A program made the translations under genes and the position numbers. This document shows, in pieces, positions 1 to 22,195 of a stretch of 64,000 bases of DNA. Within the stretch, counting starts at the first letter, position 1. Each line of letters opens with the position of its first letter. The stretch lies in contig CAYIWY010000003.1 in assembly GCA_964367355.1 (NCBI GenBank), forward strand, positions 36,919-100,918, given 5' to 3'. The notes under the pieces were generated by a model, which had not been told where the DNA came from, did not search any database, and saw only the letters and a list, made by a program, of their open reading frames with translations. The stretch is from an uncultured Gammaproteobacteria bacterium (lineage in GTDB: Bacteria; Patescibacteriota; Microgenomatia; Woykebacterales; RBG-16-39-9b).

Positions 1-133
1 TAAGCCCAGATTATATCGATAAAGGCGCAAAAACAAGTTCACTTACCCATGTTGCACTAGAAACTTTTAGGGACTTACAAAGGAAACTTACGCTTCGTTA
101 TCAAAGAATGAAGCAGGGAACTTCTGGTTAATT

Positions 134-2779
134 ATGGAAGCTGCCGATCCGTTTTCCACAACTCTGAGCATTTTTGCAATAATATTTTTTATTGGGCTAC
201 TTGTTGTCATAATTGCAGCAGCAGTTTTTGCAGTTATCTACTGGAAGCGCTTTGTTAGTCGGGAGGAAAAATCTCTTGATTATATTCTGCTGAAAATAAA
301 ACCTCCAAAATATAACGAAATTAAAATTGAAGTGGCAGAGACACTTTTCAACGCCCTGCACGGTTTGCTGAGAACTGGAGTTTCCGGGTTGTTGAAAGGC
401 CAAGATCATTATTCTTTTGAGATCGTTTCGCAAAAAGGAGAAATATTTTTTTATTTAAGTATTCCAATGGCTGTCCGGGAAATCGCCGAAAAACAAATCC
501 ATAGTTTTTATTCAGATGCCGAGATTGAACTGGTACCGCATTATAATATTTTTTCGGCTGATAAATTTGTTGATATTGCTGAGTTATCACTGAAATCAGC
601 CGCTTACAAACCGATTTTACGGTTTCATCAATTACCTGAAGTTGATACGCTTAACTCCATTACGAGCGCGATGAGTCAGCTTGAAGCTGATGAATCAATA
701 GCAGTGCAAATCTTAGTTGCTCCGTCCAACGGGAGTTGGTCTGGTGCTGGACTACGGGCAATCCACAAAGCCCAAACTGCCAGTAGCGATAAATCTTTAC
801 TGGGGAACGTTTCGTTTAATAAGACAGTCATGAATCAAGAACAAAGTGTTGAATCTGCAGAAAAGCAGCCCGAAGCAAAAACCGATAGTGTGACAATGGA
901 TCCCTACAAAAAGATTGAGGAAAAATGTAGTAAACCCGGCTGGGAAAGTGTAATTAGAATAGTAGTTAGTGCCAACGATGAATTTAGTGCGAAAACTTAT
1001 ATAAAAAATATGGTCAGTGCTTTTGCCCAGTTTAATGATCCAACGGGAAATGGTTTTCGAAAAAGACGTTGGCCTTGGACTTTGACAAAAGGAACCTCAC
1101 TGAAAGAGTTTATTTACCGAATGATGCCCTTTTGGTTTGGAAAAATGATTTTAACATCCCCGGAGCTGGCGACAATTTTTCATCTTCCCAACAAGAATAT
1201 TACAACCCCAAATATCTCCTGGGCACTTACCAAGAAAGTTGCTGCACCAAGTTTGGTTCCAAAGGAAGGTCTTTATTTGGGGCTAAGTATCTTCCGTGGC
1301 CAAAAACAAAAAATCCACCTACTGGAAGATGATCGCCGCCGTCATATGTATGTCATCGGGCAAACCGGAACCGGAAAAAGTGAATTCCTCAAATTCATGG
1401 CAATTCAGGATATTAAAGAAGGAAAAGGCGTAGCGTTTATTGATCCGCATGGTAGTGCGGTTGAAGACATCCTGAATCAAATTCCCAAAGAGAGAGCTGA
1501 AGATGTGATTTATTTTGATGCCGGGGATACCGAGCGGCCAATGGGGTTAAACATTTTGGAAGCCTCTACTGACGAGCAGAAAAATCTAGTCGTCAACTCA
1601 TTTATCGCTTTGCTTTACAAGCTTTATGATCCGAAACGGACGGGGATTATGGGTCCCCGACTTGAGCGGGCGGTTCGTAACGTTATGCTGACAGCGATGG
1701 CTAAAGAAGGCAATACCTTGGTGGAAGTTTTACGTCTTTTGACCGACCAAAATTTTGTAAAAGAAACGCTTACCTATGTGACTGATCCTTTGGTGCGGCG
1801 ATACTGGACTGATGAAATTGCCCAAACTAGCGATTTTCATAAAAGTGAAACCATGGGTTACTTTGTTTCCAAATTCGATCGTTTTGTCACCGACACCTTA
1901 CTTCGAAATATTATTGGGCAATCAAAATCCGCTTTTGATTTTAGAAAAGTGATGGACGAAAAAAAGATTTTACTGGTCGATCTTTCCAAAGGCAAAGTTG
2001 GGGAAGAAAATTCAAACTTTTTGGGATTGATATTGGTCCCACGGTTGTTAATTGCCGCAATGAGCAGGGTCGATATGCCGGAAGAAGAGCGAGCAGATTT
2101 TTATCTTTATGTTGACGAGTTCCAAAATTTTGCTACCCCTGATTTTGCCCAAATTCTTTCTGAAGCCAGGAAGTATCGTTTGAGCTTGATTGTCGGCAAT
2201 CAGTTTATTGCTCAGATTGAAGAGACAATTCGAGAGGCAGTCTTTGGAAACGTTGGTAGTTTAATTTCTTTTCGAGTTGGGGTTGACGACGCAGCGTATT
2301 TGGAAAAACAATTTGAGCCGGTTTTTAAACAACAAGATTTGATTAATAATCCAATTGGTAATGCCTATGTGCGTTTGCTTGTTAAGGGGCAGCCAACCCC
2401 ACCATTCTCAATGGCAACTGATTGGGAAACCATGCAGCAGGTAAAGAGGAATTTGGAAGTGGGTAAAGCAATTCGGGGACTTTCAAGACTTCGTTTTGGA
2501 AGGGATAAAAAAATTGTTGAAGCGGAAATGGAGCGCCGATCTGGTTTGACGAAATCAACTCTGCAACCACCTGTATCTCCTCCAAAACCGGTTACTCCGC
2601 AACCAGTCGTTAATAACAACCCTCAACCTCTTCCCCAAGCAGACGTTGTTAGTGGCGACGTTGCGGTCTCAATAAATGCAGTTGGAAGCAGCGATCTTCC
2701 ACCCAATCCAAACCAGCTAGACACGAAAGCTACAATTATTCAGCCGGGAGGACCTGGGAAGAACGATGTCCAGTGGTGA
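134..2779 (+). CDS. Type IV coupling protein-like P-loop ATPase (VirD4/TraG/TraD family, FtsK/HerA superfamily) with N-terminal TM segment and Pro-rich C-terminus
   Basis: N-terminal hydrophobic helix; Walker A GQTGTGKS; downstream FIDPHGS (the DPKG-like motif of T4CPs); Walker B-like YLYVDEFQNF; C-terminal PPVSPPKPVTPQP low-complexity tail. Confidence 0.6.
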   Translation: MEAADPFSTTLSIFAIIFFIGLLVVIIAAAVFAVIYWKRFVSREEKSLDYILLKIKPPKYNEIKIEVAETLFNALHGLLRTGVSGLLKGQDHYSFEIVSQKGEIFFYLSIPMAVREIAEKQIHSFYSDAEIELVPHYNIFSADKFVDIAELSLKSAAYKPILRFHQLPEVDTLNSITSAMSQLEADESIAVQILVAPSNGSWSGAGLRAIHKAQTASSDKSLLGNVSFNKTVMNQEQSVESAEKQPEAKTDSVTMDPYKKIEEKCSKPGWESVIRIVVSANDEFSAKTYIKNMVSAFAQFNDPTGNGFRKRRWPWTLTKGTSLKEFIYRMMPFWFGKMILTSPELATIFHLPNKNITTPNISWALTKKVAAPSLVPKEGLYLGLSIFRGQKQKIHLLEDDRRRHMYVIGQTGTGKSEFLKFMAIQDIKEGKGVAFIDPHGSAVEDILNQIPKERAEDVIYFDAGDTERPMGLNILEASTDEQKNLVVNSFIALLYKLYDPKRTGIMGPRLERAVRNVMLTAMAKEGNTLVEVLRLLTDQNFVKETLTYVTDPLVRRYWTDEIAQTSDFHKSETMGYFVSKFDRFVTDTLLRNIIGQSKSAFDFRKVMDEKKILLVDLSKGKVGEENSNFLGLILVPRLLIAAMSRVDMPEEERADFYLYVDEFQNFATPDFAQILSEARKYRLSLIVGNQFIAQIEETIREAVFGNVGSLISFRVGVDDAAYLEKQFEPVFKQQDLINNPIGNAYVRLLVKGQPTPPFSMATDWETMQQVKRNLEVGKAIRGLSRLRFGRDKKIVEAEMERRSGLTKSTLQPPVSPPKPVTPQPVVNNNPQPLPQADVVSGDVAVSINAVGSSDLPPNPNQLDTKATIIQPGGPGKNDVQW

Positions 2780-3701
2780 ACAACTAGGACCAAGTCAATC
2801 AGATCTAAATTTCCAACAAGGAGATTCTCCTAGTTTGGTAGAGGTACCGAAAGGAGAACCGGTAAGTAAACGCGATGAAGTTCTAGGCAAAATTGAAAAT
2901 ATTCTCAAAGTAGAGGACGAAGAAGTTTGGAAAAAAGGGAAGGACGCACTAATTAACGGGAGATTGAGTGAGTTGCTTGAAGAATCCCAACCAACAAGGA
3001 TTTCTTTAATTGATAAGAAAGTGCATCAAGGTTTTATTAACCCTGAATCTGATATTTACAGATCGTTGCTTGTTAGTCCGTTTAGAGTTGATGACAGAGA
3101 AATTTACTCAGAACTTTTAGAGTCAATGAGACAAATGCAACAAGGAGCTTGGAAAGGCAGGGAAGTCAGAGATATGGTACCGAGTGTTGTTGGATATACG
3201 GTTGGTAAATATTTTGGTAATCATGTCGGGTTAGGGGGAACAGAATCAAGAAACAAACAATTCTATTTTGACCACTCTGGAGTGGGTATCGATTATATAA
3301 GTTTGTCTGAACTTAAGGGTCAGAGTTTAGCTGTGTGTGCTGAGAAAGCAGCGGTTACCCAAAACTTACTTAGTTTTTTAGGCTATCAATCGGAATTGGT
3401 GGCTTCGACTGGTAATCAAATTGGAGAAGACTCACAAGTTAATCAGGATGGTCATATGTACAATGTAGTTTCTAGCGAACGGGGACATTTTATTTTTGAT
3501 ACAACCAACCCTGTCGAAGTAATTAATCAAGATAATAAGTTAGTTCACGTAAATCCGGCAACTTACCCAATTTCGGAGCAAGAATATTCTGATTTGATGC
3601 GTGGTGGTAAAGTTGAAGTAATCCACACTAATTTGAATTGGGATGGAACAGAAACTACTCCACGAGAAAGTAGTACCAGAGTTTACGCTGGTCCAAAATA
3701 G
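2766..3701 (+). CDS. Hypothetical protein, possible transglutaminase-like / papain-fold cysteine peptidase domain
   Basis: Overlaps upstream ORF by 14 nt (operon). Ordered Cys...His...Asp pattern (AVCAEKAAVTQNLLSFLGY ... GHMYNVV ... FIFDTTNP) resembling transglutaminase-like cores. Weak motif-level call only. Confidence 0.35.
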   Translation: MSSGEQLGPSQSDLNFQQGDSPSLVEVPKGEPVSKRDEVLGKIENILKVEDEEVWKKGKDALINGRLSELLEESQPTRISLIDKKVHQGFINPESDIYRSLLVSPFRVDDREIYSELLESMRQMQQGAWKGREVRDMVPSVVGYTVGKYFGNHVGLGGTESRNKQFYFDHSGVGIDYISLSELKGQSLAVCAEKAAVTQNLLSFLGYQSELVASTGNQIGEDSQVNQDGHMYNVVSSERGHFIFDTTNPVEVINQDNKLVHVNPATYPISEQEYSDLMRGGKVEVIHTNLNWDGTETTPRESSTRVYAGPK

Positions 3702-3782
3702 ATATCTCTTACTGACGTAGACTTAATTAGTTAACGAGAATTTTAGAAATAGTTCTAAGCAGTTAATTGGCAAAAAGTATTT

Positions 3783-5135
3783 ATGGAAACGGAACCAAAT
3801 AGTTTAACAGAAGGACAACCTGCACCTAATAACGAAAACTCAAGTCCAGATTCAGTACAACCAAGTGCCGATATTGGAGCTAGTCTCGACAAGACTCGAA
3901 GCGATTCTGCGTTTGCCGCACAAATTAAAGATCAAGAAGAAAAGGACCGAAACCGAATTGCAGAATTGAGGAGTAGATTAGGTGTTGTTAATACACCAGA
4001 AAATAAAGCAGATTATGAAGAGCCGGTTACTAAACCTATTGAAAAGAGTCAAACAATCGAACCGACACAATTCGGTGTTGCTCATGTTCCGGGAGAGAAA
4101 TTACCGGAAGATCACCCACTAAACCAGCGGGAAAGCTTTAGTTATACAAAAGAGGGTCCCAAATTTACAGATGTATTAAGTGACTCAATAGATCGGGACA
4201 ATGTACTTTCTTCAAAAGAAAGTGATATTTACCCAAAACCTCCTATAAGGACTTTTACTGAAAGAGAAGGTTTGGCTGATTTAAATAAATTTTTAGACAA
4301 AACAATTGAATTAGCTACTCAAAAAGGTAATAAAAAGGTTGAAGAAACCGTCCGCGTTTTTAAAAGGGATTTAGTTTATATTGGTGAGCCCGAACTAAAA
4401 GAAGCCTTGCAAAGTATGGCGTCAGGGATTGTTTCTTCAGCTGAAAACGGCGAAAATGTTTATTTGTATATTTCTGGAAAAAGAAGTGAGCGTTATATCT
4501 CCTTAAGAATTTTGGAAGAGGTTGATCAACTAACTACTGAAAATTCACAACTGCGACAAAGGATTCATTTTTCTGAAAACCCAGCGGCAATTTCCAAGGC
4601 TTTGAAAGAGAGTGGAGGTCGCGGCAAAGCTATTGTCGTTGATGACTTTTCAGTTAGTGGTACGCGTATCGACGCTGCTGCCACAAATGCTTTTCGAGGT
4701 TTAGTTCAAGCTGGGTTTTCACCCGAAGAGGCAAGCAGAAGGATTGAAATTAATCTGATTGCTGACAAAACCAATCGAAGTAATCGGGGAGAAGGACATC
4801 ACGTTAGTGCTGCTATGACCGGAGAAAAGTTTGACTATCCGATTAAAACCTCGGCTTATTATGGAATTTCTGAGAGTCGAAAAAATGATGGTAGCTTAAA
4901 TGTCTTTACGGGGATGAGTGTTAGTGGAAGTCATAGTTCGACTGATTATGGATATGAAAATGTGCTAGACGAGTTTTGGCACTTTCAAATTGATAGCGGA
5001 GGAACTTCAAAAATGCCGCTGTTGCACAGTTTAAACAGGCCTTACGAAATGGAAGGTTACAGTGGGAATTATTACAAAGATAAGCAACTACAAGCAAGAT
5101 GGAACATGATAATGCACAAATATCAGCTTAGATAA
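3783..5135 (+). CDS. Hypothetical protein with disordered N-terminal region and a phosphoribosyltransferase-like motif
   Basis: AIVVDDFSVSGTRI matches the type I PRTase PRPP-binding loop (hhhhDDhhxTGxT), as in ComFC-like proteins. The rest is unassigned. Confidence 0.3.
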   Translation: METEPNSLTEGQPAPNNENSSPDSVQPSADIGASLDKTRSDSAFAAQIKDQEEKDRNRIAELRSRLGVVNTPENKADYEEPVTKPIEKSQTIEPTQFGVAHVPGEKLPEDHPLNQRESFSYTKEGPKFTDVLSDSIDRDNVLSSKESDIYPKPPIRTFTEREGLADLNKFLDKTIELATQKGNKKVEETVRVFKRDLVYIGEPELKEALQSMASGIVSSAENGENVYLYISGKRSERYISLRILEEVDQLTTENSQLRQRIHFSENPAAISKALKESGGRGKAIVVDDFSVSGTRIDAAATNAFRGLVQAGFSPEEASRRIEINLIADKTNRSNRGEGHHVSAAMTGEKFDYPIKTSAYYGISESRKNDGSLNVFTGMSVSGSHSSTDYGYENVLDEFWHFQIDSGGTSKMPLLHSLNRPYEMEGYSGNYYKDKQLQARWNMIMHKYQLR

Positions 5136-5178
5136 TCTCAGTGCAGTTGAATATTAGTGGAGTAACCAACAGGTTAAA

Positions 5179-6396
5179 TTAAGTTGAAGAAGTTGGAGTT
5201 TTCAGCATTTCAAAAGGTTTGAGGAGATCTTTTTCGGTACCAACTCTGAGTTTTATTTCTGCTTCAGTCTCGAAATTTTTCGGGTTGTGTTCAAAATAGC
5301 TGGCTAAGTTTAAGCTTGAGCGTAGGGTACCTAGGGCAACAATTACTCTTCCTTCTTCCTCCCGACCTTCTCTAGCATACGAAGCAATCATTTCTTTATC
5401 AAACGCTTCCTGGAACACAGGATTGTTCCAAGCACGGGCCCGCATATTGCCAAAATCATAAGCAGCTGCAAGCACTTCGTTTTGACTTATTCCCGCCCAT
5501 TCGAAATCCAGTCCGATAAATTTGTCACTGGCAAGGCCATCGCCGAGAAAAATATTGTTGGGGGCAAAGTCACCGTGGACAACGTGCTCTCCTTTTCCCT
5601 GATTTCGCTCGATAACCGGGCTAACTTGTTCGAGTAGTTGATCGATTCTTTGCACTAGGTCTGGGGTCTTGGTTTTTTCCGCCATTAGAGCAGCAAATAC
5701 ATGTTTTTCGGGAGAAAAATCATCTTCCGTACCGCTCACTTGTCGCGAGAGAATTTTTACTAGATTGGCCCGAAAACCAATATAATCGCTAAAAGCGGCC
5801 TTCTTGTCCAGAACCGCCCTTACTTCCGGGGTTAGTTTTTCTTCCTGATGACTCAGATCTCTAATGGCTTTAACAGCTTCGATTGCGTGCTCAGCAGTCA
5901 ATTCCTTGCTATCCTCGATAGTATACAAAAAGCCGACACCCTCACCTTTTTGATACCAGTTCATAACTGCATACATTGGTCCTTGAGCCTCTTGTGTATT
6001 GGTGTCAAGAACTTCCGTTACCGGAAAGTCAGTCCGCTCGTCCAAATAGTCTTGAACTTTGATTTGGCGAATGAAAAATTCCTTATGCTTCGCTTCTTTG
6101 ACTTGGTCAGGATCTGGAAGCGGGGCTTTAAAGAATCTTTCTTTCAGTAGTAGGCGATTGTCGGTTTCGTTTTGGTCAAATTCAACAACATGGAGTCTCA
6201 TATATCTATCACCGTGAATCTGTGTGTTCCAATCGTCCTGTGAATAAAAAAGATGGTGTTTCTCCAGTATTTTTTTAATATCACTTTCCCATTTTTCCTT
6301 TTTAACTTCGAAGGGGGATTTTTCAATGGGAATGTATGTTTCCGAAGGTTTTGAAGAAGTGTTAGTCGGCTCTGGTTTTGGAGCTTCTTGAGCCAT
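5179..6396 (-). CDS. APH/choline-kinase-like phosphotransferase (protein kinase-like fold)
   Basis: Catalytic loop HGDFAPNNIF (Brenner HxDxxxxN motif) followed by LDFEWAG (DFG-equivalent). Confidence 0.6.
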   Translation of the reverse strand: MAQEAPKPEPTNTSSKPSETYIPIEKSPFEVKKEKWESDIKKILEKHHLFYSQDDWNTQIHGDRYMRLHVVEFDQNETDNRLLLKERFFKAPLPDPDQVKEAKHKEFFIRQIKVQDYLDERTDFPVTEVLDTNTQEAQGPMYAVMNWYQKGEGVGFLYTIEDSKELTAEHAIEAVKAIRDLSHQEEKLTPEVRAVLDKKAAFSDYIGFRANLVKILSRQVSGTEDDFSPEKHVFAALMAEKTKTPDLVQRIDQLLEQVSPVIERNQGKGEHVVHGDFAPNNIFLGDGLASDKFIGLDFEWAGISQNEVLAAAYDFGNMRARAWNNPVFQEAFDKEMIASYAREGREEEGRVIVALGTLRSSLNLASYFEHNPKNFETEAEIKLRVGTEKDLLKPFEMLKTPTSST

Positions 6397-6509
6397 TGGA
6401 GGTGGAGATTCGAGAACACTAGTTTCAGACCATTAACTAAATCATAGAGACCCTCTGGTCTGAAATCAACCTTTAGACCAGGTTCGAGATAAAAGTTGTT
6501 TAGTAGTAA

Positions 6510-6842
6510 CTAACTTGGGTTTTCGGGAAGGTTCTTCTCCTTAGCTTTTTCACGCTCGTAATCTGCCTCGAAAGTTTCAATAAAAGCATCTAGGGCTAGA
6601 TCGCCAATTTCCTCAACATTTTTGCCAGTTCGTTGTTCGTAAAGTTTTGCAATCAATAGATTGACCTCTTCCTCTTTTGCTGCTTCGATTTCAGCCAAAT
6701 CTTCTTCAGTCAAAGCAGCGATAATCTCCATATGAGCCTTTTGAGCAATAGTATTGTTGAGGTTTGTCACAAATTCACCAATTTGGTCTTCCTTCAAACC
6801 CTCTTTTTTCAAAATTTCCAAAACACTATCAAGTTTATTCAT
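6510..6842 (-). CDS. Small acidic protein (candidate chaperone or immunity partner of the upstream 826-aa protein)
   Basis: 110 aa, Glu/Asp-rich, predicted helical; overlaps the 826-aa gene by 8 nt on the same strand. Confidence 0.4.
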   Translation of the reverse strand: MNKLDSVLEILKKEGLKEDQIGEFVTNLNNTIAQKAHMEIIAALTEEDLAEIEAAKEEEVNLLIAKLYEQRTGKNVEEIGDLALDAFIETFEADYEREKAKEKNLPENPS

Positions 6843-9315
6843 TAATTAGTTCCTCAGCGATTTCTTCAGATGCCCTTCTTTCAAAGAAATCAGTTATATC
6901 AGCAATATCGTTAAGCGAAAGAATCTTAAGTTTTTGGTTGACTGGAATCCAGTCTAAGCTAGTTTGCAGGTCATGAAACGCACCAGCATCACCACCTCGA
7001 GCGTGTTCTATTAAAGCGAGAACTTCTTGTTGGGTTGGAAAGTTGTTTGTGGCTAGACCAGATTCAACCATACGATTGTGCGTTTCAGCTAGCAGCTGAT
7101 GATTGGCAAGAATATGACCGCCAAAAAGATCTGCGTCAGCACTTGTCCAAGTAACTCTGTGCCCGTTATTTTGCAGGAGAGTTGAGACAGTATCTCCTTG
7201 ATGAATGTCGACCAAGTTACCAACATCTGCACTTGTCAAAGTATCGATCAGCGGGTTGGTATCAATACCAACTTCTGCCAAACGTCCAGCTTCATACAGC
7301 CGACCAACATCCGACCATTGTTCACTGGTGAGTGATGTAAAGGTTTTCCAGGCTTCAGGGTCCTGATGGATTCGATTAATCAGATCGATTTGATCTTGAG
7401 AAAGAGGTGGTAGACCTTCGGGTAAGGACGTTTCGAGATTACCTACATTAGGTGAATCTGGACCACCGTTTAGTTTATGCTCTACAAATTTATCAATATC
7501 GAAGAATTGATTGGTAATTCCTTGGGTAATTGCACCAACTTTCATCCCGGCGGAAAAACTTCGAATCCGTTCGTTGGCTTTACTGTATTTGAAAACTTTG
7601 TTTTGAAGTTCTTGGGTGAGTGTTTCAACGATCGGGTCGAAGGAATCTTTTTCGCTATAACCCATCCGGGACAATAAATCTTGGGAAATGCGGGTCATCT
7701 TTGTTTGGTATTCGGTTAAACCACTCGTTTTCAGAAGACGACTGGCTCGGTCGTATTGGTCTCTATAACTTCGAACGTCGATAGATTTAAGGCCCTCTTC
7801 ACTTAAATTGTTGACGTTTTGTCTAATGCTTCGCTCAATACCGCGAAGTCTTAGTGAGTTGACCCCGCTTGAAAGCAGATGCGTGACAGCGGTCGTTCCA
7901 ACTGAATTAATCAGGCTGCCGGCACCTGGAAGTACCAGATTAAGTGCGGTGTTGGTAGTGAAACCAGTGGCAATACCAGCTGCCCAGGCAACTTTGTCTT
8001 TGTCACGCCAATCAAAGTTATTGAGGTAGCGCTGCGCACTTTCATAAACAAAATTACCGCCTGGAGTTTTCAAAGCAACTGCGCGGGCAACTTCGGCAAC
8101 TTTTACTCTGGCAGTTTCGGCTACGGAGAAAATACGACTTGCATGAGACGGTTTATCTTTCTCTGATTCAGGTTCAGTAGGATCGCTATTCTTAACTTTA
8201 TCCACAAATTCCTTGATTTTACTATCAAGCTCGTCAGCTTTACCTGCTTGGCTTTCAGCCATCAACCGATCCATCTCAGAGGAAGTAAGTTGTACTTTTG
8301 AATCTGTATTGGCTTTTGGTTGTTCAGTTGGGGTTGTTGGATTAACTCCTTCAGGCCTTTCTTTAGGCGGATTTGCATTTTGTCTTTCGAGAAAACTGCG
8401 CGCGTATTCAATTTCTTGTTCGGGGGTGAGTAATATTTCCCGACCATCTCCAGTGGTATAAACTCTATATTTTTGTCCAAGCTCGTGTTCCCTTTGTTCG
8501 GAAAATCTTAAGTCCCCCAGCAGCTCACCCGAATGGGTTATTTCAGAGACTAGATTATGAGCTGAAGTTGTGAGTGGATCCTGGTCGATCTTTTCCGGTT
8601 CCGACAGAGTTTGTATTGAAGGGGGCTCTGCAGTTTCTGTTGTCGCAGCCACCAGTGCTTCTCGTTCAACTGCCTGTCTTTGTACCTCAGAGTTAATAAG
8701 ACTACTTAGATCTCCAGAAACATCTTCCGCTTGTCGGTGTTGGCTTTCATCTGGAGGTGCAATGGTTTGAGGAGATATTAAAGTTTCGACTTGACCAGGG
8801 TTGCTAGCGAAGTGTTCCATTGTTTCACGTGGTCCCAGAGCTTCTATTTCTTCAGGTGTAAGGCCTTGCTGGGGGAGAAGGATTGCTTTGGCAAATCTGA
8901 CTGCCTCGAGGTCGGCTTTGCCGGTTTGTCTGAAATTATTGACTGTGGTTTGAAATTCGGCTAACTCGTCCCTACGTTGGGAATTATTTTCCTTTCCCGA
9001 AGGTGGGGGGCCAGGAATTTCTGGGGTTTCGTCGTTTGGACTAGCAGAGTGTACAACTGATGTTTCTGGTCGAGCATCGATTCTGGTTGCATTTAGTCCA
9101 CTATGGCGTTCTAGCTCTTCCTGAGTTGGAAAATCAGTGATATTTGGTGGTCGTTCCCCTCCACCACGATGTAAGCGGTCTTGATCAGAACGGTCTGAAA
9201 TTTGTGCAGGATCAGCTCGAGAAGGAGCACGTTCTTGTACCTCGTTTTGGTTTGAGAAACTGTCCCCGCCAGAAGGAGCGTTTTCTGAAAAAGGAGAATT
9301 TTCGGCAGAATTCAT
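6835..9315 (-). CDS. Large hypothetical protein (826 aa) with low-complexity N-terminal third and a Gly-rich hydrophobic hairpin
   Basis: Long ORF. N-terminal ~330 aa is Pro/Ser/Glu-rich and disordered. Internal AWAAGIATGFTTNTALNLVLPGAGSLINSVGTTAVTHLL is a glycine-zipper-like hydrophobic segment. No recognisable catalytic motif. Confidence 0.5.
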   Translation of the reverse strand: MNSAENSPFSENAPSGGDSFSNQNEVQERAPSRADPAQISDRSDQDRLHRGGGERPPNITDFPTQEELERHSGLNATRIDARPETSVVHSASPNDETPEIPGPPPSGKENNSQRRDELAEFQTTVNNFRQTGKADLEAVRFAKAILLPQQGLTPEEIEALGPRETMEHFASNPGQVETLISPQTIAPPDESQHRQAEDVSGDLSSLINSEVQRQAVEREALVAATTETAEPPSIQTLSEPEKIDQDPLTTSAHNLVSEITHSGELLGDLRFSEQREHELGQKYRVYTTGDGREILLTPEQEIEYARSFLERQNANPPKERPEGVNPTTPTEQPKANTDSKVQLTSSEMDRLMAESQAGKADELDSKIKEFVDKVKNSDPTEPESEKDKPSHASRIFSVAETARVKVAEVARAVALKTPGGNFVYESAQRYLNNFDWRDKDKVAWAAGIATGFTTNTALNLVLPGAGSLINSVGTTAVTHLLSSGVNSLRLRGIERSIRQNVNNLSEEGLKSIDVRSYRDQYDRASRLLKTSGLTEYQTKMTRISQDLLSRMGYSEKDSFDPIVETLTQELQNKVFKYSKANERIRSFSAGMKVGAITQGITNQFFDIDKFVEHKLNGGPDSPNVGNLETSLPEGLPPLSQDQIDLINRIHQDPEAWKTFTSLTSEQWSDVGRLYEAGRLAEVGIDTNPLIDTLTSADVGNLVDIHQGDTVSTLLQNNGHRVTWTSADADLFGGHILANHQLLAETHNRMVESGLATNNFPTQQEVLALIEHARGGDAGAFHDLQTSLDWIPVNQKLKILSLNDIADITDFFERRASEEIAEELINE

Positions 9316-9949: not shown

Positions 9950-9993
9950 AGAAAATTTAATCTAGCTTTTATGCTGCGGAGCACCGACCAATC

Positions 9994-10040
9994 CGCATTT
10001 TTTGAAGCGTTGTTTTAATGGTACAACATTAGAGTAACTC
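9994..10040. repeat. Diverged duplicate of the secA 3' end (copy 4, coding tail only)
   Basis: Reverse strand translates to ...NVVPLKQRFKKCGLVGAPQHKS*, homologous to the intact SecA tail ...GLKYKRCGLINSPTHQEN... Confidence 0.55.
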
Positions 10041-10080: not shown

Positions 10081-10335
10081 ATGAGTGACTTAATATCTAT
10101 CTCCGATGCACGAACCAATCTTCCCGACCTTGTTACTAAGGTTAGTAACAATATGAGTAGGGTAATAATTACTGTTAACGGCAAGCCCAGAGCTACCCTT
10201 GTGAGTTCCGAAGAGTTAGAATCCCTTGAGGAAACAGCAGAAATTCTTTCTATTCCAGGTGCAAAGAAAAGTATTACGGAAGGCTTGAAACAGGCAAAAA
10301 AGGGACAAGGTATTTCTCTAAGCCAGTTAAAATAA
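10081..10335 (+). CDS. Phd/YefM-family antitoxin
   Basis: ISISDARTNLPDLV...VNGKPRATLVSSEELESLEETAEIL. Confidence 0.8.
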   Translation: MSDLISISDARTNLPDLVTKVSNNMSRVIITVNGKPRATLVSSEELESLEETAEILSIPGAKKSITEGLKQAKKGQGISLSQLK

Positions 10336-10339
10336 GCTT

Positions 10340-10588
10340 ATGGAAGTTATTATTACTCCAAAGGCTAGTAAGCTCTACAATCAAATTCCCAAAACTGAAC
10401 AACTTAAAATCAAAAAGAAACTTCTTGTACTTGATCATAATCCCTTTGATGGTAAGAAGCTTTCTGGAAATTTCTCAGGGTTAAGATCCTTGAGAGTATG
10501 GCCATATAGAATAATTTATTACGTCGACGAAAAGTTAAAGAAAGTATTTGTTGTTACAATTGCCCATCGACAAGGTGTGTACGAATAA
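10340..10588 (+). CDS. RelE/ParE-family toxin
   Basis: 82 aa; LRSLRVWPYRIIYYVD...VVTIAHRQGVY. Confidence 0.8.
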   Translation: MEVIITPKASKLYNQIPKTEQLKIKKKLLVLDHNPFDGKKLSGNFSGLRSLRVWPYRIIYYVDEKLKKVFVVTIAHRQGVYE

Positions 10589-10592
10589 ATAC

Positions 10593-10690
10593 TGTTAAGC
10601 CTTAGCCTTAGCCATATTTTCTTGGTGTGTCGGGCTATTTATATTACCACATTTTTTGAAGTGCTTGTTTAATGATATAGCATTAGATTC
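10593..10690. repeat. Diverged duplicate of the secA 3' end (copy 1)
   Basis: Reverse strand encodes ...SLNKHFKKCGNINSPTHQENMAKAKA*, near-identical to the last 16 codons of intact secA; ~85-90% nt identity to 13190-13260 and 11520-11606. Confidence 0.7.
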
Positions 10691-11094
10691 TTAGCGAATT
10701 TATTTTTTACTTTATTTAAGAGTTTCTCGTCAGCAGTATAAAAGTCTATTCCTAGATATTCGGCGAGTGCCAAATAAGAAGCATCGTAGGAGGATATGTT
10801 AAACTCGACTGCTGCCTCTAGTGTGGAAATTAAAAGTTCAGAAGTTGAGTAACTTACTAAGTCAAGAGATAAAAAGCCTTTATAAGCTTGGTTTGCTAGG
10901 GTCTTTTCAACCCTTAAGGTAGTTATTGCTGTTTTTAATATGTTGTTTAGTTCGTAGTAAATTAAGGTTGGGACGCAAATTCTTAATTGGCCTTCAATAA
11001 AGTCTTTTTGGATTTGAAGAGCTGTTTCGGAATTTTCTTCAGAAGGGAAAAACCACTTGGCTACGACCGAAGAGTCAACAATGATAGTTTTCAC
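10669..11094 (-). CDS. PIN-domain toxin (VapC-like)
   Basis: MKTIIVDSSVVAKWF... N-terminal PIN signature with conserved acidic residues. Confidence 0.75.
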   Translation of the reverse strand: MKTIIVDSSVVAKWFFPSEENSETALQIQKDFIEGQLRICVPTLIYYELNNILKTAITTLRVEKTLANQAYKGFLSLDLVSYSTSELLISTLEAAVEFNISSYDASYLALAEYLGIDFYTADEKLLNKVKNKFAKNLMLYH

Positions 11095-11345
11095 CGTAGA
11101 TCTTTTTTAGAATTAGCGAGTAGCTCTCTTAGATCAAAATTACTTTCCTCTAGGCTACTTCTCAATCGGTTGATTGATTGTACTGCCTTTTTTTGGGAAT
11201 TAAGGTCTGTGACACGTTTCAATCCTGAAGCTAATGTATCATTAATCGTTTCTTGCAGAGTTGTGCTGCGTTCAAAGGCAATCGATCGAGACTGATCAAG
11301 AAGGTCTTTTCTAATTCTTATAGTAGTCCGTACGAAGTTTTTCAT
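11091..11345 (-). CDS. VapB-type antitoxin (putative)
   Basis: 84 aa, overlaps the PIN gene by 4 nt, upstream position. Confidence 0.5.
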   Translation of the reverse strand: MKNFVRTTIRIRKDLLDQSRSIAFERSTTLQETINDTLASGLKRVTDLNSQKKAVQSINRLRSSLEESNFDLRELLANSKKDLR

Positions 11346-11380
11346 AACTAAAACCTAGCATCTTGTCATCAAGATGTCAA

Positions 11381-11399
11381 TATATATATATATATATAT
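11381..11399. repeat. (TA)9 dinucleotide microsatellite
   Basis: tatatatatatatatatat directly upstream (minus strand) of the vapBC operon start. Confidence 0.9.
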
Positions 11400-11430
11400 T
11401 TTTAATGTCCTCGGTAACTTTGTAGATACC

Positions 11431-11606
11431 ACAAGGAGGTAATAAGTTATAGATCTCTTCGAGCTCTGCGTCCACTTTGTGGGCTAAAACACCCTGAAAT
11501 TAGTGGCGTTTTAGGCTTTAGCCTTGGCCAAATTTTCTTGATGTGTCGGGCTATTTATATTTCCACATTTTTTGAAGTGCTCTTTTAATGGGATACACAT
11601 AGATTC
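11431..11606. repeat. Diverged duplicate of the secA 3' end plus its 3' flank (copy 2, most complete)
   Basis: Reverse strand encodes ...MCIPLKEHFKKCGNINSPTHQENLAKAKA* then ~90 nt matching the region downstream of the secA stop (13110-13189). Confidence 0.7.
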
Positions 11607-11692
11607 AATATATGATTAATAACAAAATGTTGCAACTTTTTAAGACGTATGATAATATGACGATGGTTCTGAAAAGAACCCCATAATTTGCT

Positions 11693-11737
11693 AACTCCCC
11701 CCAGTTCTTTACGACCTGGGGGTTTTTGGTTGCTAAA
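11693..11737 (+). terminator. Rho-independent terminator-like hairpin (CCCCCCAG...CTGGGGG + TTTTT)
   Basis: 7-8 bp GC stem, ~10-nt loop, T5 run; nothing obvious upstream on + strand except a 24-codon ORF. Confidence 0.4.
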
Positions 11738-11767
11738 AACTATTATCACTTATAGAATAGATAGGTT

Positions 11768-12307
11768 ATGAAAAAGGTCTTAGTACAATTTGACGGTAGT
11801 AATTTCTACAACAAGGTTAAAAAACTTTTGCCTTCTACTCATTTAACAAATTTTGATTACGCTGGTTTGGCCAAATCTATTATAGAAGATAAACAAGCAG
11901 AGATTACTTATTATGTTGGTGAGATAAGAAAATACCCAGGAAACAAAAAATCTCAAAGTCTTTATGCGAACCAACAGTCACTTTTCCTAAACTTAAGAAA
12001 GCAGGGACTTGAAGTAAAACTTGGCTACCTTTTGTTTTCTGGCGGAGTTTATCACGAAAAAGGTGTTGATGTTCAAATTGCGGTTGATATTGTTCGCGGA
12101 GCTATCAAAAATGAGTATGATAAATGCTACTTAATTTCCTCAGACACAGACCTTTTACCAGCTATTCAAACTGCTAAAGATGAGGGCAAACAGATTATTT
12201 ATGTTGGATTTGAGAATTTTATCAGCCGAGCACTTGCTAATAATTGTTCGTCTAGCGTAATTCTTAAAAAGAAGCAGATTCAGGTTTTTTCTGAAAAAGT
12301 TGAATAA
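11768..12307 (+). CDS. NYN-domain (LabA/PIN-like) putative RNase
   Basis: VLVQFDGSNFYNK ... VDVQIAVDIV ... ISSDTDLLPAIQ...GKQII: conserved Asp framework of NYN/LabA domains. Confidence 0.65.
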   Translation: MKKVLVQFDGSNFYNKVKKLLPSTHLTNFDYAGLAKSIIEDKQAEITYYVGEIRKYPGNKKSQSLYANQQSLFLNLRKQGLEVKLGYLLFSGGVYHEKGVDVQIAVDIVRGAIKNEYDKCYLISSDTDLLPAIQTAKDEGKQIIYVGFENFISRALANNCSSSVILKKKQIQVFSEKVE

Positions 12308-12326
12308 ATAAAAATCCCCTTTACAC

Positions 12327-12335
12327 CCCCCCCCG
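12327..12335. repeat. Poly-C homopolymer tract (C9) in the intergenic region upstream of 12364 ORF
   Basis: cccccccccc run. Confidence 0.9.
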
Positions 12336-12363
12336 TTTCTTTTGCTACCACCAAAATGCTAAA

Positions 12364-13071
12364 ATGGCAGCTATGGTTACAGGTGAATACCAACTTAAAC
12401 AAAAAGAACTTTTTGATAATTTGGAGGCGAAGCTCAAAAAAGGTGAGAGCTCTGTTACACTAGTTGAACCAGTTAAAGACTACGTCAACGACAGGAGAAC
12501 CTGTTTAACAAGTGTCGTTTTTATCCCGACAGAACTTCAAGAGAAAATATTAGATAAGGTTATTAGCCCTCTTAAAGAAGCGGATACTAGGCAATACTAT
12601 TACGTTCCAAACTCTTTTCATTTAACAATTCAAAACATAAAAACAATCAACGAGCCGCCTTCTTTTAATGAAAATGATATTGAACTAGCAAGGGAAGTAT
12701 TTCAGGAGGTAATTTCCAAGTTTAAATCTATTAATTTTCAAATAGCAGGGATTTTTGAACTTCCCACTAGTTTATCCCTACGTGCGTATTCTGACGAAAC
12801 ACTAAAAGATTTGGCTTTAGCTTTAAGAAAAAAGTTGAAAGAAGCTGGTGTGCCTGATAACAAAACATATGCTTCAGAGGAGGTAGTGTTCGGTAATATC
12901 AGTATTTCTAGATATACTTCTGATCCTAATCAGGCTTTCTTTGAGCAAGTGGAACAATTAAAGAACGTTGAGATAGGGGTTTTAAAAGCCTTTACGGTTT
13001 CTTTAATCACAACTAATTCTATTTGCCACCCAGATAAAACGAAAATTATTGAGAAATTCAATTTGCAATAG
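12364..13071 (+). CDS. Hypothetical protein, possibly degenerate 2H-phosphoesterase (LigT-like) fold
   Basis: One clear HxTx motif (FHLTIQN) and a second position with N in place of H (GNISISRY). Weak call. Confidence 0.25.
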   Translation: MAAMVTGEYQLKQKELFDNLEAKLKKGESSVTLVEPVKDYVNDRRTCLTSVVFIPTELQEKILDKVISPLKEADTRQYYYVPNSFHLTIQNIKTINEPPSFNENDIELAREVFQEVISKFKSINFQIAGIFELPTSLSLRAYSDETLKDLALALRKKLKEAGVPDNKTYASEEVVFGNISISRYTSDPNQAFFEQVEQLKNVEIGVLKAFTVSLITTNSICHPDKTKIIEKFNLQ

Positions 13072-13109
13072 CTTTGAAGCCAAAAACTTGATATTTGAGT
13101 AAAAAATTT

Positions 13110-13189
13110 GAGACTCCACATGGAGGTCATAAGTTATAGATCGCTTCGCGCCCTGCGACCACTGGTAGTTTAGAGAAATCAGTGGCGTT
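13110..13189 (-). other. secA 3' flank (3' UTR) conserved with copy 2; contains hairpins
   Basis: ~85% identical to the corresponding part of 11431-11520; CCACUG...CAGUGG and CUCCA-UG-UGGAG stems. Confidence 0.4.
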
Positions 13190-16211: not shown

Positions 16212-16784
16212 ATGAGCACCCCTATTAGACATTTTCAACAAAATAGTTACTATCACGTTTTTAATAGAGGTAACCACAAAAGTGACATTTTTCTCAATCC
16301 GTACGATTATTTACGGTTTCTTGAAAAAATTGAAGAATATAAGGATAAATGTCAGATAAAAGTTTTGTGTTTCTGTTTAATGCCGAATCATTTTCATTTA
16401 CTTTTGCAACAACTCAGTGACATACCGTTGACTAAATTTATGCTTTCTCTATCAACAAGTTATTCAAAGTACTTCAATATTAAATATGACCAGGTTGGGA
16501 GACTGTTTCAGGAAAGATTTAGAGCGGTTGAAGTCACTACTGATGAATATTTGTTGTATCTTACAAAATATATTCATCTTAACCCAACTAAACTTAAAGT
16601 TGATATTACAAAATATAAATGGTCCAGTTTAAATAATTACATTGATTATAGCGAATGGGATTTTGTTGAACCTGAACCTATTCTCAACTATTTTTCACAA
16701 ATAAATCCGAAAAAAGATTATTTGAATTTTGTGTTGGAAAATATATCAAATGTTGTTGGAGTTGAGAAGTTGTTAATCGATTAG
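16212..16784 (+). CDS. REP-associated tyrosine transposase / IS200-like TnpA (Y1 HUH)
   Basis: YHVFNRGN ... CLMPNHFHLLLQ (HUH motif) ... LTKYIHLNP (catalytic Tyr region), collinear with RAYT family. Confidence 0.8.
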   Translation: MSTPIRHFQQNSYYHVFNRGNHKSDIFLNPYDYLRFLEKIEEYKDKCQIKVLCFCLMPNHFHLLLQQLSDIPLTKFMLSLSTSYSKYFNIKYDQVGRLFQERFRAVEVTTDEYLLYLTKYIHLNPTKLKVDITKYKWSSLNNYIDYSEWDFVEPEPILNYFSQINPKKDYLNFVLENISNVVGVEKLLID

Positions 16785-20612: not shown

Positions 20613-20888
20613 GTGTACCATATGTTTAGTATGATTAGAACTTACATTTACTTTCCTAAGGAATTAAATAGCGAAATTGAGGTTTTAGCCAAAGATGTTA
20701 ATAAAAGCAAAGCTAGTGTAATTAGAGAAGCCTTGCAAGAAGGTCTAAATTCCATTAAAAAGCAAAAAAGTGGCGGTATTGAGGCTCTTCTTAAAATTGC
20801 TGATTTAGGTGAAAAAATAAAAGCAAAAGGCCCAAGTGATTTATCTTCTAATATAGATAAGTATTTGTGGGAAAATTGGAATGTATAA
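20613..20888 (+). CDS. Ribbon-helix-helix antitoxin (VapB/CopG-like)
   Basis: 91 aa; upstream of and overlapping the PIN gene by 8 nt; paralog of 21469-21723. Confidence 0.5.
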   Translation: MYHMFSMIRTYIYFPKELNSEIEVLAKDVNKSKASVIREALQEGLNSIKKQKSGGIEALLKIADLGEKIKAKGPSDLSSNIDKYLWENWNV

Positions 20889-21312: not shown

Positions 21313-21468
21313 TCAATTTTGATACCCTGCTCTTAGGTTTTCAATCCATATACCTTTACTTTTACTAGCAATAATACCTTGATGTATCGGTCTAATATCT
21401 CTGTTTGACTCATTATAGTACATGTACTATTGACATACATCACATATTTAGGGTAAAGTAAATCTACT

Positions 21469-22141: not shown

Positions 22142-22158
22142 GTTTACTTCATTGTGGG

Positions 22159-22195
22159 TTGACGTTTGTACACATTTGTACTAATATGTACTTAT
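22159..22195 (+). promoter_or_regulatory. Putative promoter/operator with TGTACA/TGTACT repeats
   Basis: TTGACG then TTTGTACACATTTGTACTAATATGTACT; same TGTAC operator theme as at 10046-10080. Confidence 0.4.

Follow-up and report, generated by a model that had tools for sequence, protein, structure and literature searches.

The locus at one edge of a 64-kb stretch of DNA (the window) is best read as a 'frame and slot' arrangement belonging to one Microgenomates clade (Woykebacteria-like). Its frame consists of a small upstream protein and a coupling-type ATPase, ORF1, which face ORF6 and ORF5 on the opposite strand, and ORF2, ORF3 and ORF4 occupy the slot between them. The three slot genes are replaceable tenants of a hypervariable position, and the six genes do not form a fixed module. 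It is possible, although we place it a little short of evenly probable, that a T4CP-centred system recruits or exports variable, effector-like clients here.

Gene content of the locus

The six ORFs of the original prediction exist at the following positions and on the following strands, together with a truncated upstream gene and a promoter-like site:

2-133, + strand: 3' end only (~44 codons) of a small gene upstream of ORF1, detected by tblastx; the remainder lies beyond the window
134-2779, + strand: ORF1, 881 aa, coupling-type ATPase
2766-3701, + strand: ORF2, 311 aa; transglutaminase/NAT-like Cys-His-Asp domain behind a leader predicted to be disordered (residues 1-32)
3783-5135, + strand: ORF3, 450 aa; leader region of ~115 aa, PRTase-like domain and a family-specific C-terminal extension (GSHSSTDYG motif)
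5179-6396, - strand: ORF4, 405 aa; leader and APH/eukaryote-like kinase fold, slot tenant
6510-6842, - strand: ORF5, 110 aa, acidic
6835-9315, - strand: ORF6, 826 aa; leader, disordered N-terminal half, YLNNFDWRDK motif, Gly/Ala/Ser/Thr-rich segment and C-terminal domain of ~170 aa
9326-9355, - strand: promoter-like site of the ORF6-ORF5(-ORF4) unit, TTGACG-18-TATAAT, 11/12 matches

ORF1 begins only 133 nt from the edge of the window, so that its upstream partner gene is cut off. By tblastx, window positions 3-137 correspond with 71% identity to positions 9868-10002 of L081, the nearest related locus, where they encode the C-terminus of a 127-aa protein whose gene directly adjoins the ORF1 orthologue on its upstream side. 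The ORF1 stop and the ORF2 start overlap by 14 nt, and the ORF6 stop and the ORF5 start by 8 nt; genes 3' of the ATPase overlap or abut the ATPase gene both in the window and in relatives. The ORF1 side and the ORF6/ORF5 side are converging transcription units on opposite strands. The promoter-like site lies 11 nt before the ORF6 ATG and is supported by consensus matching alone; the total count of such sites equals the shuffle expectation.

Three TA pairs and an NYN gene directly adjoin the locus, and the neighbouring 9.9-13.2 kb stretch is a cassette array with repeated insertion at the 3' end of secA. No tRNA genes or flanking repeats were found around ORF2-6, and the GC content of the slot is not distinctive, ORF1 and secA being equally GC-rich. 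The largest ORFs of the window are housekeeping genes by Pfam scan. VirB4/MPF genes, a relaxase and T4SS channel genes were sought within the 64-kb window by Pfam scan and BLAST and none was found, in agreement with the original prediction that other T4SS structural genes are missing from it; a VirB4 in the window is unlikely because every other long ORF is already assigned. The T4SS pilin and membrane proteins of L098, a locus from a distant lineage, likewise had no BLAST match within the window.

The orphan coupling-type ATPase

Judged by its sequence, ORF1 is a membrane-anchored protein with a DUF8128 domain and a VirD4/TraG-like P-loop ATPase domain, that is, an orphan T4CP homologue. The VirD4/TraG-type assignment first proposed is upheld by two Pfam models over their cut-offs, TraG-D_C (26.0 bits, cut-off 22) and TrwB_AAD_bind (23.6 bits, cut-off 20.5), and the Walker A (GQTGTGKSE) and Walker B (LYVDEFQN) motifs are invariant in 16 homologues. 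Precomputed Pfam annotation places PF26449 (DUF8128) on a database protein 100% identical to ORF1 (P0001) and on all 120 among the ORF1 homologues listed, and phrog_5156 matches ORF1 over its full length (residues 46-799, E 1.5e-85). PDB matches, to TrwB and DotL, are confined to the Walker A region (E about 4e-5), around which the DotL structure 6sz9 resembles ORF1 with E 6e-5. The membrane anchor is predicted to be a single helix, rather than the two usual in T4CPs, with one strongly hydrophobic N-terminal segment (residues 13-36, Kyte-Doolittle 3.28). It is followed by the DUF8128 domain of ~330 aa, which classical T4CPs do not have. Curated full-length T4CP models from NCBIfam score ORF1 below cut-off, with 51.7 for conju_CD1115 (cut-off 250), 45.5 bits for SXT_TraD (cut-off 366) and lower scores for the remaining models. 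A literature search found no paper mentioning DUF8128.

The ORF1 family is a very large, near-universal chromosomal family in Patescibacteria that is already described in the literature. It has more than 7,888 homologues, which are about 50% identical across Patescibacteria phyla. A published survey counted 5,713 T4CP homologues in 2,918 Patescibacteria genomes, of which just 148 lie near virB4, while most have no linkage to that gene and may have been 'exapted' (PMC12102498). ORF1 belongs among these orphan VirD4-type T4CPs, being chromosomal, widespread and encoded away from virB4. Conserved partners, a variable downstream slot and a shared leader are not part of that description (PMC12102498); they come from the present analysis and are valid for one clade only.

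Across 80 diverse ORF1 loci the conserved neighbours are NrdR, RNR, cobalamin adenosyltransferase, XerC/D-like and DivIC genes. We regard it as improbable that ORF1 drives DNA uptake or is a housekeeping DNA translocase with an FtsK-like part in segregating chromosomes or resolving dimers, the other five genes being unrelated to it. Such a role would suit a core chromosomal gene with a XerC/D-type tyrosine recombinase (34/80 loci) or DivIC/FtsB (30/80) just downstream, and it would suit the phage homologues, which lie at early or replication-recombination regions. It is opposed by the T4CP domains over their cut-offs, by a Pfam FtsK_SpoIIIE match of E 0.056 only and by a search of ORF1 for the FtsK gamma domain, which was not detected. 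A Southlakia T4CP homologue is also reported to be non-essential for epibiotic growth (PMC12102498), and a translocase leaves the leader-bearing upstream partner and the ORF6/ORF5 linkage unexplained. ORF1 as FtsK proper was rejected because the profile match is weak. A housekeeping assignment of ORF1 had been named as counting against the original prediction, and in part it does, because the gene is near-universal and chromosomal with housekeeping neighbours.

The genes at the +1 position of ORF1 homologues in the 80 diverse loci are of mixed housekeeping types, with singletons slightly over-represented (24/43 vs 40% overall). The leader described below occurs at +1 in 2 of 72 diverse loci and is not enriched there. 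A general 'variable effector' position 3' of the ORF1 family was therefore rejected.

Slot genes, the ORF6/ORF5 pair and the shared leader

In L081 the ORF1 orthologue is 83% identical and the locus is syntenic with the window at ORF1 and again from secA on, yet nothing is shared with window positions 2.6-13.2 kb. L086 has orthologues of ORF1 (88% identical), ORF3 (69%), ORF4 (83%), ORF5 (89%) and ORF6 (85%), but an unrelated 531-aa gene stands at the ORF2 position and five extra genes are present. ORF2 is absent from both. Among relatives the slot holds PP2C, a HopA1-like protein (family match over cut-off, E 6e-7), or a DarT-like protein with an ADP-ribosylglycohydrolase, or it is empty; the DarT-like match, in L086, is weak (E 0.0095), and the adjoining ADP-ribosylglycohydrolase is leaderless. 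The tblastn searches with ORF2-6 against the 80 diverse ORF1 loci returned no matches, and a universal six-gene module is therefore ruled out. Compared across relatives, the six genes do not hold together as one unit.

ORF2 probably has a transglutaminase/NAT-like fold, an assignment of moderate strength which agrees with the enzyme-like Cys-His-Asp arrangement first noticed. C191, H230 and D245, in that order, are invariant in its 13 homologues, the only ones found among 5.8 billion proteins. The best Foldseek matches of its AF2 model (pLDDT 76, pTM 0.79) are TglA (9crn), a TGase (4xz7), arylamine N-acetyltransferases, FXIII and TG2, all of them weak (E 3e-3 to 0.2). For ORF3 a PRTase-like fold with a PRPP loop is likewise suggested at moderate strength, as had been predicted. 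It carries the PRPP-loop-like string VVDDFSVSGTRI, with D287, D288, S292 and G293 invariant in 12 sequences (just 12 homologues among the same 5.8 billion proteins), and its PRPP-binding loop, AIVVDDFSVSGTRI, shows a hydrophobic stretch, two acidic residues and an S/T-G-x-T-like pattern. Foldseek with the AF2 model (pLDDT 75) recovered UPRT (6wn8) and HGPRTs at prob 0.9-0.99 with weak E values (4e-3 to 0.09) and TM(target) of 0.33-0.48; with these as best fold matches, the specific likeness to ComFC that had been proposed is not retained. The Pfam PRTase-CE match is weak (E 0.043, 14.1 bits vs cut-off 27). Invariant motifs are RSERY, DDFxxSG and GSHSSTDYG, the last in a conserved C-terminal extra that typical PRTases lack.

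ORF4 was predicted to be an APH-like kinase. Its motifs HGDFAPNN (catalytic loop) and LDFE (metal-binding) are consistent with this, whereas the Pfam APH score of 20.4 bits (E 4.8e-4) is under the 23.2 cut-off; its counterpart in L086 is annotated 'APH (weak)', and no ORF4 homologue is present in L093-L097 or L100. ORF2-4 carry the Cys-His-Asp triad, PRPP loop and HGDxxxxN...DFE of known enzyme families, and their sequence matches to those families are all below curated cut-offs. Sequence-only PDB searches with ORF2, ORF3, ORF4 and ORF6 gave nothing significant, and no immunity candidate is evident adjoining ORF2, ORF3 or ORF4.

An anti-phage or conflict island, with TA modules on its flanks and with immunity provided jointly by the ATPase, the PRTase-like protein and the kinase, is a very improbable reading of the locus. 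PADLOC matches ORF1 to mad8 (E 3e-16), ORF3 to PRTase_III-A (E 0.011) and ORF4 to PD-T4-6 (E 0.002), and the adjoining TA pairs and NYN gene and the ORF1 homologues in large Bacillus phages fit such an island. The mad8 match, however, reflects the common P-loop domain, the ORF3 and ORF4 matches are weak, and a retron-type PRTase would have a reverse transcriptase or ncRNA partner, neither of which is present. ORF1 is a near-universal core gene with ~50% identity across phyla, unlike defence genes, and other genomes do not carry the components together. The ATPase-centred conflict system offered in the original prediction comes down to these weak PADLOC hits and is not supported.

ORF6 and ORF5 form a recurrent pair. 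ORF5 is acidic, as predicted (pI 4.4; D+E 27 vs K+R 13), and it had no family match and no PDB match. A gene resembling it (29-38% identity) lies directly 3' of each full-length ORF6-like gene in L086, L093-L098 and L100. ORF6 has 65 representative homologues, whose alignments show conservation of the YLNNFDWRDK motif and of the C-terminal domain; residues 1 to ~400 are polar, with a hydrophobic content of just 19%. Of the hydrophobic hairpin predicted in ORF6, a Gly/Ala/Ser/Thr-rich segment at ~445-490 stands, but its Kyte-Doolittle value stays below 1.2 and membrane insertion is therefore uncertain. TAL-effector matches to ORF6 were discarded as noise (E > 0.5), and PDB searches with profiles of ORF5 and of the ORF6 C-terminal domain gave nothing significant.

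At 8 of 10 loci examined (the window, L086, L093, L094, L095, L096, L097 and L100) the pair converges on an ORF1-type ATPase, with zero to eight genes in between; in L093-L097 and L100 the ORF6-like proteins are 27-31% and the ATPases 64-74% identical to those of the window. In L098 the pair lies ~7 kb from an array of four T4SS_pilin genes. The linkage to the T4CP could be inherited gene order, because a single clade supplies every ORF6 locus with a linked T4CP and housekeeping genes there (HisRS and one upstream gene) are also syntenic. L081 keeps ORF1 without ORF5 and ORF6, and HMMs of the two found nothing in the 80 diverse ORF1 loci. A viral-contig scan for ORF6-like genes found nothing, and among metagenome scans those with the ORF6 C-terminal domain gave no confirmed locus (the first alignment being too divergent), an alignment of the ORF6 mid-region being the query that did recover loci.

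The feature common to slot and frame is an acidic, proline-rich N-terminal leader resembling M-x-E-x-P-x-P-x-P-E, carried by slot proteins, by proteins of the ORF6 type and by the small protein encoded upstream of ORF1. A polar, acidic, Pro-rich first 30-mer occurs in only 4 of the 67 window ORFs (ORF2, ORF3, ORF4 and ORF6), which sit within five consecutive genes adjoining ORF1. A regular expression for the leader matched 14 of 27 frame and slot proteins vs 25 of 1,249 background ORFs. In other genomes a PP2C carries the leader as MSSEIPGPSPEE and a HopA1-like protein as MSGETPGPSPEN, and L093 has it on a CCA-adding-enzyme-like protein. It is kept between orthologues at 52-80% identity. The small protein upstream of the ORF1 homologue has a leader in L093, L094 and L095, and in 14 of 77 diverse loci vs 2.3% overall. 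The leader is an add-on: the domains that follow it are unrelated to one another, and homologues of ORF2 and ORF3 outside the clade are mostly leaderless, the distant ones lying in other gene contexts with no T4CP neighbour. By eye, ORF2-4 and ORF6 have nothing in common at their C-termini. PPE-like strings prompted a comparison with PE/PPE proteins, which was dropped because the leader regions are predicted by AF2 to be disordered, not helical.

Proposed client recruitment, a possible insertion hot spot and known secretion systems

Because they have this unusual leader in common, the enzyme-like slot proteins are candidate exported effectors. We infer that the leader may be a docking signal by which clients reach the cytoplasmic portion of the ORF1 ATPase. 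ORF6 and ORF5 would form a putative pair of adaptors or chaperones close to the membrane, much as DotM and IcmS/IcmW do on DotL. Clients would then be exported, possibly via a T4SS that Patescibacteria encode elsewhere, and might have the host bacterium or competitors as targets. Against this, ORF1 and ORF6/ORF5 are convergent and not co-transcribed, the leader is also carried by two frame components that are not cargo (ORF6 and the small upstream protein), and recognised T4SS signals are C-terminal rather than N-terminal. The leader on the L093 CCA-adding-enzyme-like protein, its lack of enrichment at +1 in diverse loci, an L081 locus with ORF1 alone, the single clade behind the linkage, the weak Foldseek matches of ORF2 and ORF3, the missing channel genes in the window and the reportedly non-essential T4CP homologue of Southlakia also count against it. 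The fullest form of the proposal, in which a DUF8128/VirD4-like ATPase of Patescibacteria reads the leader as a targeting signal not recognised before, the slot genes are the first identifiable Patescibacteria effector repertoire and ORF6/ORF5 are a new adaptor pair, we hold to be unlikely. The effector-export idea of the original prediction draws indirect support from the shared leader, the effector-type slot domains in relatives, the ORF6/ORF5-T4CP linkage and the one T4SS-pilin locus, but not as a six-gene unit, and the original interpretation as a whole is partly supported.

The main rival of client recruitment is a hot spot for insertions, flanked by core genes in synteny and without functional coupling, ORF1 and ORF6/ORF5 being neighbours by inheritance; this is a real possibility, if clearly short of even. 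The convergent gap, like the secA 3' end, would gather unrelated lineage-specific accessory genes, and the leader would reflect a compositional tendency among the lineage's young, fast-evolving orphan genes. The convergent orientation, the housekeeping genes kept in synteny nearby (HisRS in L095, L097 and L099), the ORF2/ORF3 homologues in unrelated contexts, the absence of ORF5 and ORF6 from L081, the secA cassette array next door and the mixed housekeeping neighbours of the ORF1 family all point this way. A hot spot does not, however, readily account for a recognisable leader motif common to unrelated proteins of different genomes, its retention between orthologues, or its enrichment across phyla on a conserved small protein upstream of the T4CP. 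The slot domains are also consistently of signalling, modification or effector type and not random, and ORF6/ORF5 lie near T4SS pilins in a distant lineage.

Client recruitment would have parallels in known systems. In the Dot/Icm system of Legionella, DotL works with DotM, DotN, IcmS, IcmW and LvgA, the adaptors being small, acidic proteins of ~110-150 aa, and the coupling complex recruits many unrelated effector enzymes, partly via Glu-rich motifs. The likeness lies in a T4CP ATPase with a membrane-associated receptor and small acidic adaptors (compare ORF1, ORF6 and ORF5). Searches of ORF5 and ORF6, however, showed no sequence or fold homology to IcmS, IcmW or DotM; Dot/Icm signals are C-terminal or internal and its channel genes are known, whereas no channel genes lie near the ORF1 locus. 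In the bacteria-killing T4SS of Xanthomonadales (X-Tfe/X-Tfi), variable enzymes are fused to a VirD4-recognised XVIPCD and immunity genes adjoin the toxins. Variable enzymatic domains with a shared module are found here too, and the leader-bearing DarT-like protein and leaderless ADP-ribosylglycohydrolase of L086 may be compared with a toxin and its immunity protein; but the XVIPCD folds into a C-terminal domain of about 120 aa, and the shared element at this locus is a short disordered N-terminal leader. Polymorphic toxin-immunity systems join a common trafficking module to variable C-terminal toxins, with the cognate immunity gene adjoining; variable enzyme domains behind a shared N-terminal leader invite the comparison, but a possible toxin-antidote pair (the weak DarT-like match) is seen only in L086, and ORF2-4 have no immunity candidate beside them. 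At the type VIIb essC locus of Firmicutes, an FtsK/HerA-superfamily membrane ATPase is followed by strain-variable effectors and small helical partners, and here too a variable cassette follows a membrane ATPase; ORF1 has one P-loop domain vs three in EssC, and neither ORF5 nor the slot proteins showed WXG100 or LXG signatures.

Patescibacteria make up a large part of bacterial diversity and live on other cells, and in their sole genetically tractable species the T4SS is essential for epibiotic growth (PMC10633639, PMC12102498). No secreted substrates or recognition signals are known for them and the role of the orphan T4CPs is open (PMC10633639, PMC12102498); the Saccharibacteria T4SS 'may instead export proteins', with no substrates known (PMC10633639). 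Our literature search found no paper describing Patescibacteria effector signals. If the locus is an insertion hot spot, it is a clear recombination hot spot in a reduced genome and of modest interest. If the leader-bearing slot proteins are clients of the ATPase, ORF6 and ORF5 would be two new accessory components, the slot would supply concrete candidate effectors with testable enzyme chemistries, and the leader would give a sequence rule for finding effectors genome-wide.

The ATPase family and its neighbours

The six open reading frames (ORFs) at one end of the window are present exactly as first described:

134-2779, plus strand: ORF1, VirD4/TraG-type P-loop ATPase
2766-3701, plus strand: ORF2, putative enzyme with a Cys-His-Asp arrangement
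3783-5135, plus strand: ORF3, putative PRTase-like protein
5179-6396, minus strand: ORF4, protein with kinase motifs
6510-6842, minus strand: ORF5, small acidic protein
6835-9315, minus strand: ORF6, protein with a polar N-terminal half

The assignment of ORF1 to the VirD4/TraG type was borne out by Pfam matches to TraG-D_C and TrwB_AAD_bind above cut-off, with FtsK_SpoIIIE below cut-off. ORF1 could serve an FtsK-like housekeeping role, which would leave the partners of the protein unexplained. Matches to the NCBIfam T4CP models fell far under their full-length cut-offs, and sequence matches in the PDB, to TrwB and DotL only, were restricted to the Walker A region. ORF1 has a single strong hydrophobic helix near the N-terminus, and its N-terminal domain of about 330 aa is DUF8128 (PF26449) in the newer Pfam release.

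More than 7,888 homologues of ORF1 were scored, with about 50% identity across Woesebacteria, Shapirobacteria, Gottesmanbacteria, Daviesbacteria, CPR3 and others; the nearest named relatives are Candidatus Woykebacteria (65-67%). A scan at one genome per species gave at least 597 loci of this family, and 80 were retained for neighbour analysis. Clustering of neighbours in these 80 loci placed NrdR, class II ribonucleotide reductase, cobalamin adenosyltransferase and an uncharacterised protein of about 145 aa upstream of the ATPase, and a XerC/D-type recombinase and DivIC/FtsB downstream. Patescibacteria have been reported to carry 5,713 VirD4-type homologues in 2,918 genomes, just 148 of them close to virB4 (PMC12102498), and both the breadth of the ORF1 family and its neighbours agree with that census of orphan VirD4-type genes. 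The ORF1 family is, in short, an already known and very widespread gene. As the original prediction held, no other T4SS genes were found in the 64-kb window, the remainder of which encodes cell-envelope and housekeeping functions.

Large Bacillus phages also carry distant homologues that span the full length of ORF1, the DUF8128 region included; they are 20-23% identical to ORF1 and were found in 51 Bacillus-type phage genomes (e.g. gp156 of phage G). In Bacillus phage 031MP002 (L101) the homologue (4545-7100) maps to the early or recombination region, and the gene before it encodes a 131-aa protein which, judged from its signal-like start and two hydrophobic helices, looks pilin-like.

The ORF6/ORF5 pair and the variable slot

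ORF5 is acidic, as predicted (pI 4.4), and the N-terminal half of ORF6 is indeed polar and poor in hydrophobic residues. The glycine-zipper hairpin proposed for ORF6 is only weakly hydrophobic, so that membrane insertion is putative. The 65 representative homologues of ORF6 have in common a C-terminal domain of about 170 aa and a mid-region of YLNNFDWRDK followed by a Gly/Ala/Ser/Thr-rich segment, and they vary greatly in the N-terminal half, which is disordered and in many cases rich in proline. Inside the variable half, at ORF6 residues about 117-185 (window about 8761-8965), lies a conserved stretch of about 60 aa, FxxTGxxDxxxxxFAxxxxLPxxGLxxEEIxxLGP, which is present even in relatives that lack the mid-region (e.g. 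database proteins P0135-P0137 and P0142-P0143).

Ten informative loci were assembled from a metagenome search with the ORF6 mid-region, four representatives that were looked up, the window and the related locus L086. In eight, an ORF6-like gene (27-31% identity) is directly followed by an ORF5-like gene (29-38%), and the pair is convergent with an ORF1-type ATPase (64-74%). ATPase and pair are adjacent in L094 and L100, separated by a single gene in L093 and L096, by two genes in L095, by three in both L097 and the window, and by eight in L086. All eight loci come from a single clade that also shows synteny of HisRS and other genes. In L098, from a distant lineage, some 7 kb separate the pair from a tandem array of four T4SS_pilin (PF18895) genes (region 10164-14129), and L099 has an ORF6 relative without the mid-region and neither ORF5 nor ATPase nearby. 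A 539-aa multi-pass membrane protein near the pilin genes of L098 could be VirB6-like, and a 1,139-aa protein bearing the N-terminal leader described below is encoded between the pair and the pilin and membrane genes.

The interval between ORF1 and ORF5, here called the slot, turns over rapidly. L081, the closest relative with a long contig (ORF1 83% identical), is collinear with the window at ORF1 and again from secA on. Between window positions of about 2,560 and 13,200 (10.6 kb) and the corresponding 4.7 kb of L081 there is no similarity; the latter holds genes for a PP2C phosphatase and for two proteins of 58 and 426 aa, and the ORF6/ORF5 pair has been lost or moved. L086 retains the C-terminus of ORF1 (88%), ORF4 (83%), ORF5 (89%) and ORF6 (85%), with ORF3 at just 69%, an unrelated 531-aa gene in the place of ORF2, and five extra genes. 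Among 5.8 billion proteins the ORF2 family has 13 homologues and the ORF3 family 12; distant members lie in unrelated contexts without a T4CP, those of ORF2 next to housekeeping genes. No homologue of ORF2 to ORF6 was detectable in the 80 diverse ORF1-family loci. The proposal of a six-gene module is thus not upheld, and the tenants of the slot, ORF2, ORF3 and ORF4, are exchangeable. In L087 (5473-9365) an ORF3 homologue that lacks the leader (41% identity) is flanked by M16 peptidase and TldD/PmbA protease genes, a context that may hint at what this PRTase-like family does natively, outside the slot.

The enzymatic guesses for the three tenants are reasonable given their conserved motifs, model fold matches and kinase features. 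Cys191, His230 and Asp245 are invariant in the ORF2 family, and the AlphaFold model (pLDDT 76, pTM 0.79; residues 1-32 disordered) gave consistent yet weak matches (E 3e-3 to 0.2) to the transglutaminases TglA (9crn), 4xz7, FXIII and TG2 and to arylamine N-acetyltransferases. The PRPP-loop-like DDFxxSG, RSERY and GSHSSTDYG are all invariant in the ORF3 family, the model of which (pLDDT 75; residues 1-39 and 67-115 disordered) matched UPRT and HGPRT (probability 0.9-0.99, E 4e-3 or worse). ORF4 shows the motifs of APH/eukaryote-like kinases and matches the APH profile below threshold.

The slots of relatives also hold PP2C phosphatases. In L093 (2871-3824), and again in L096 (2245-3198), a member of the HopA1 effector family (PF17914, E 6.3e-7, above cut-off) is encoded immediately beside the ORF1 orthologue. 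The extra genes of L086 (3846-8085) include one for a 539-aa leader-bearing protein with a weak match to the ADP-ribosyltransferase DarT (E 0.0095), which is followed by a 110-aa protein and has a leaderless ADP-ribosylglycohydrolase near it, a possible toxin-antidote set.

A shared N-terminal leader

An acidic, proline-rich stretch resembling M-x-E-x-P-x-P-x-P-E, here called the leader, begins otherwise unrelated proteins, often as a recognisable motif. In the window a polar, acidic, proline-containing N-terminal 30-mer occurs on only four of 67 ORFs (ORF2, ORF3, ORF4 and ORF6), which fall within five consecutive genes adjoining ORF1. In related loci it marks slot genes, ORF6-like genes and the small protein upstream of the ATPase.

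Leaders on frame and slot proteins
PP2C phosphatase: MSSEIPGPSPEE
HopA1-like slot protein (L093): MSGETPGPSPEN
226-aa slot protein: MSEIPAPPEIE
Upstream small protein: MDNLPAPPEG
ORF6-like protein: MLPETGPPPEE

A simple regular expression for the leader matched 14 of 27 frame or slot proteins versus 25 of 1,249 background ORFs. By composition, it was found on 2.3% of ORFs in the 80 diverse loci, 18% immediately upstream of the ATPase and 3% immediately downstream. The leader looks like an added module, since it is kept between orthologues (52-80% identity) and is mostly absent from those distant homologues of ORF2 and ORF3 that have no T4CP link.

Directly upstream of ORF1 homologues (L001-L080, e.g. 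L079 4121-4558; window 2-133) is a 100-190-aa protein of low sequence conservation, with a disordered acidic or polar N-terminus and no Pfam match. One cluster of these proteins covers 28 of 80 loci, and 14 of 77 bear the leader. The small protein is probably a universal partner of the DUF8128 ATPase family.

Two possible readings: insertion hot spot or leader-tagged effectors

Pseudo-copies of the secA 3' end (encoding ...INSPTHQENMAKAKA*) and of the sequence just past it occur at window 9993-10033, 10595-10690, 11424-11606 and 13111-13285. They bound cassettes of Phd/ParE (10081-10588), VapB-like/PIN (10669-11345) and NYN with a 235-aa ORF (11768-13071), which look like serial site-specific insertions at the secA 3' end; none of the three contains an integrase. 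Beyond secA, an IS200-like Y1 transposase (16212-16784) and a Fic/DOC protein (17628-18614) are both absent from syntenic L081. Further small gene pairs at 20613-22964, 37575-38261 and 43109-43785 resemble toxin-antitoxin modules in size and PIN-like N-termini, and the genome seems rich in such pairs.

The main rival explanation is that inherited synteny and an insertion hot spot account for everything. The adjacent cassette array, the convergent orientation of the frame units and the sampling of T4CP-linked loci from a single clade all favour it. A defence-system reading, based on weak PADLOC hits, is unlikely. Effector export, as originally proposed for six genes, did not survive in that form; a modified, more specific form with leader-tagged slot tenants does, and we hold it tentatively, at somewhat less than even confidence. 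The leader would dock slot proteins onto the T4CP-like ATPase, ORF6 and ORF5 would together be the adaptor, and the docked proteins would then be exported, possibly via a T4SS encoded elsewhere. The nearest parallels in function are the DotL-DotM-IcmS/IcmW coupling complex, the XVIPCD-tagged toxins of the X-T4SS and the variable region that follows essC. A search for homology to components of these systems detected none.

The organisation into frame, slot and leader appears to lack a prior description in the literature. In the best-supported picture, the T4CP-like ATPase, the small leader protein and the ORF6/ORF5 pair form a conserved frame, and the slot that it encloses turns over fast and holds effector-type enzymes tagged with the leader.
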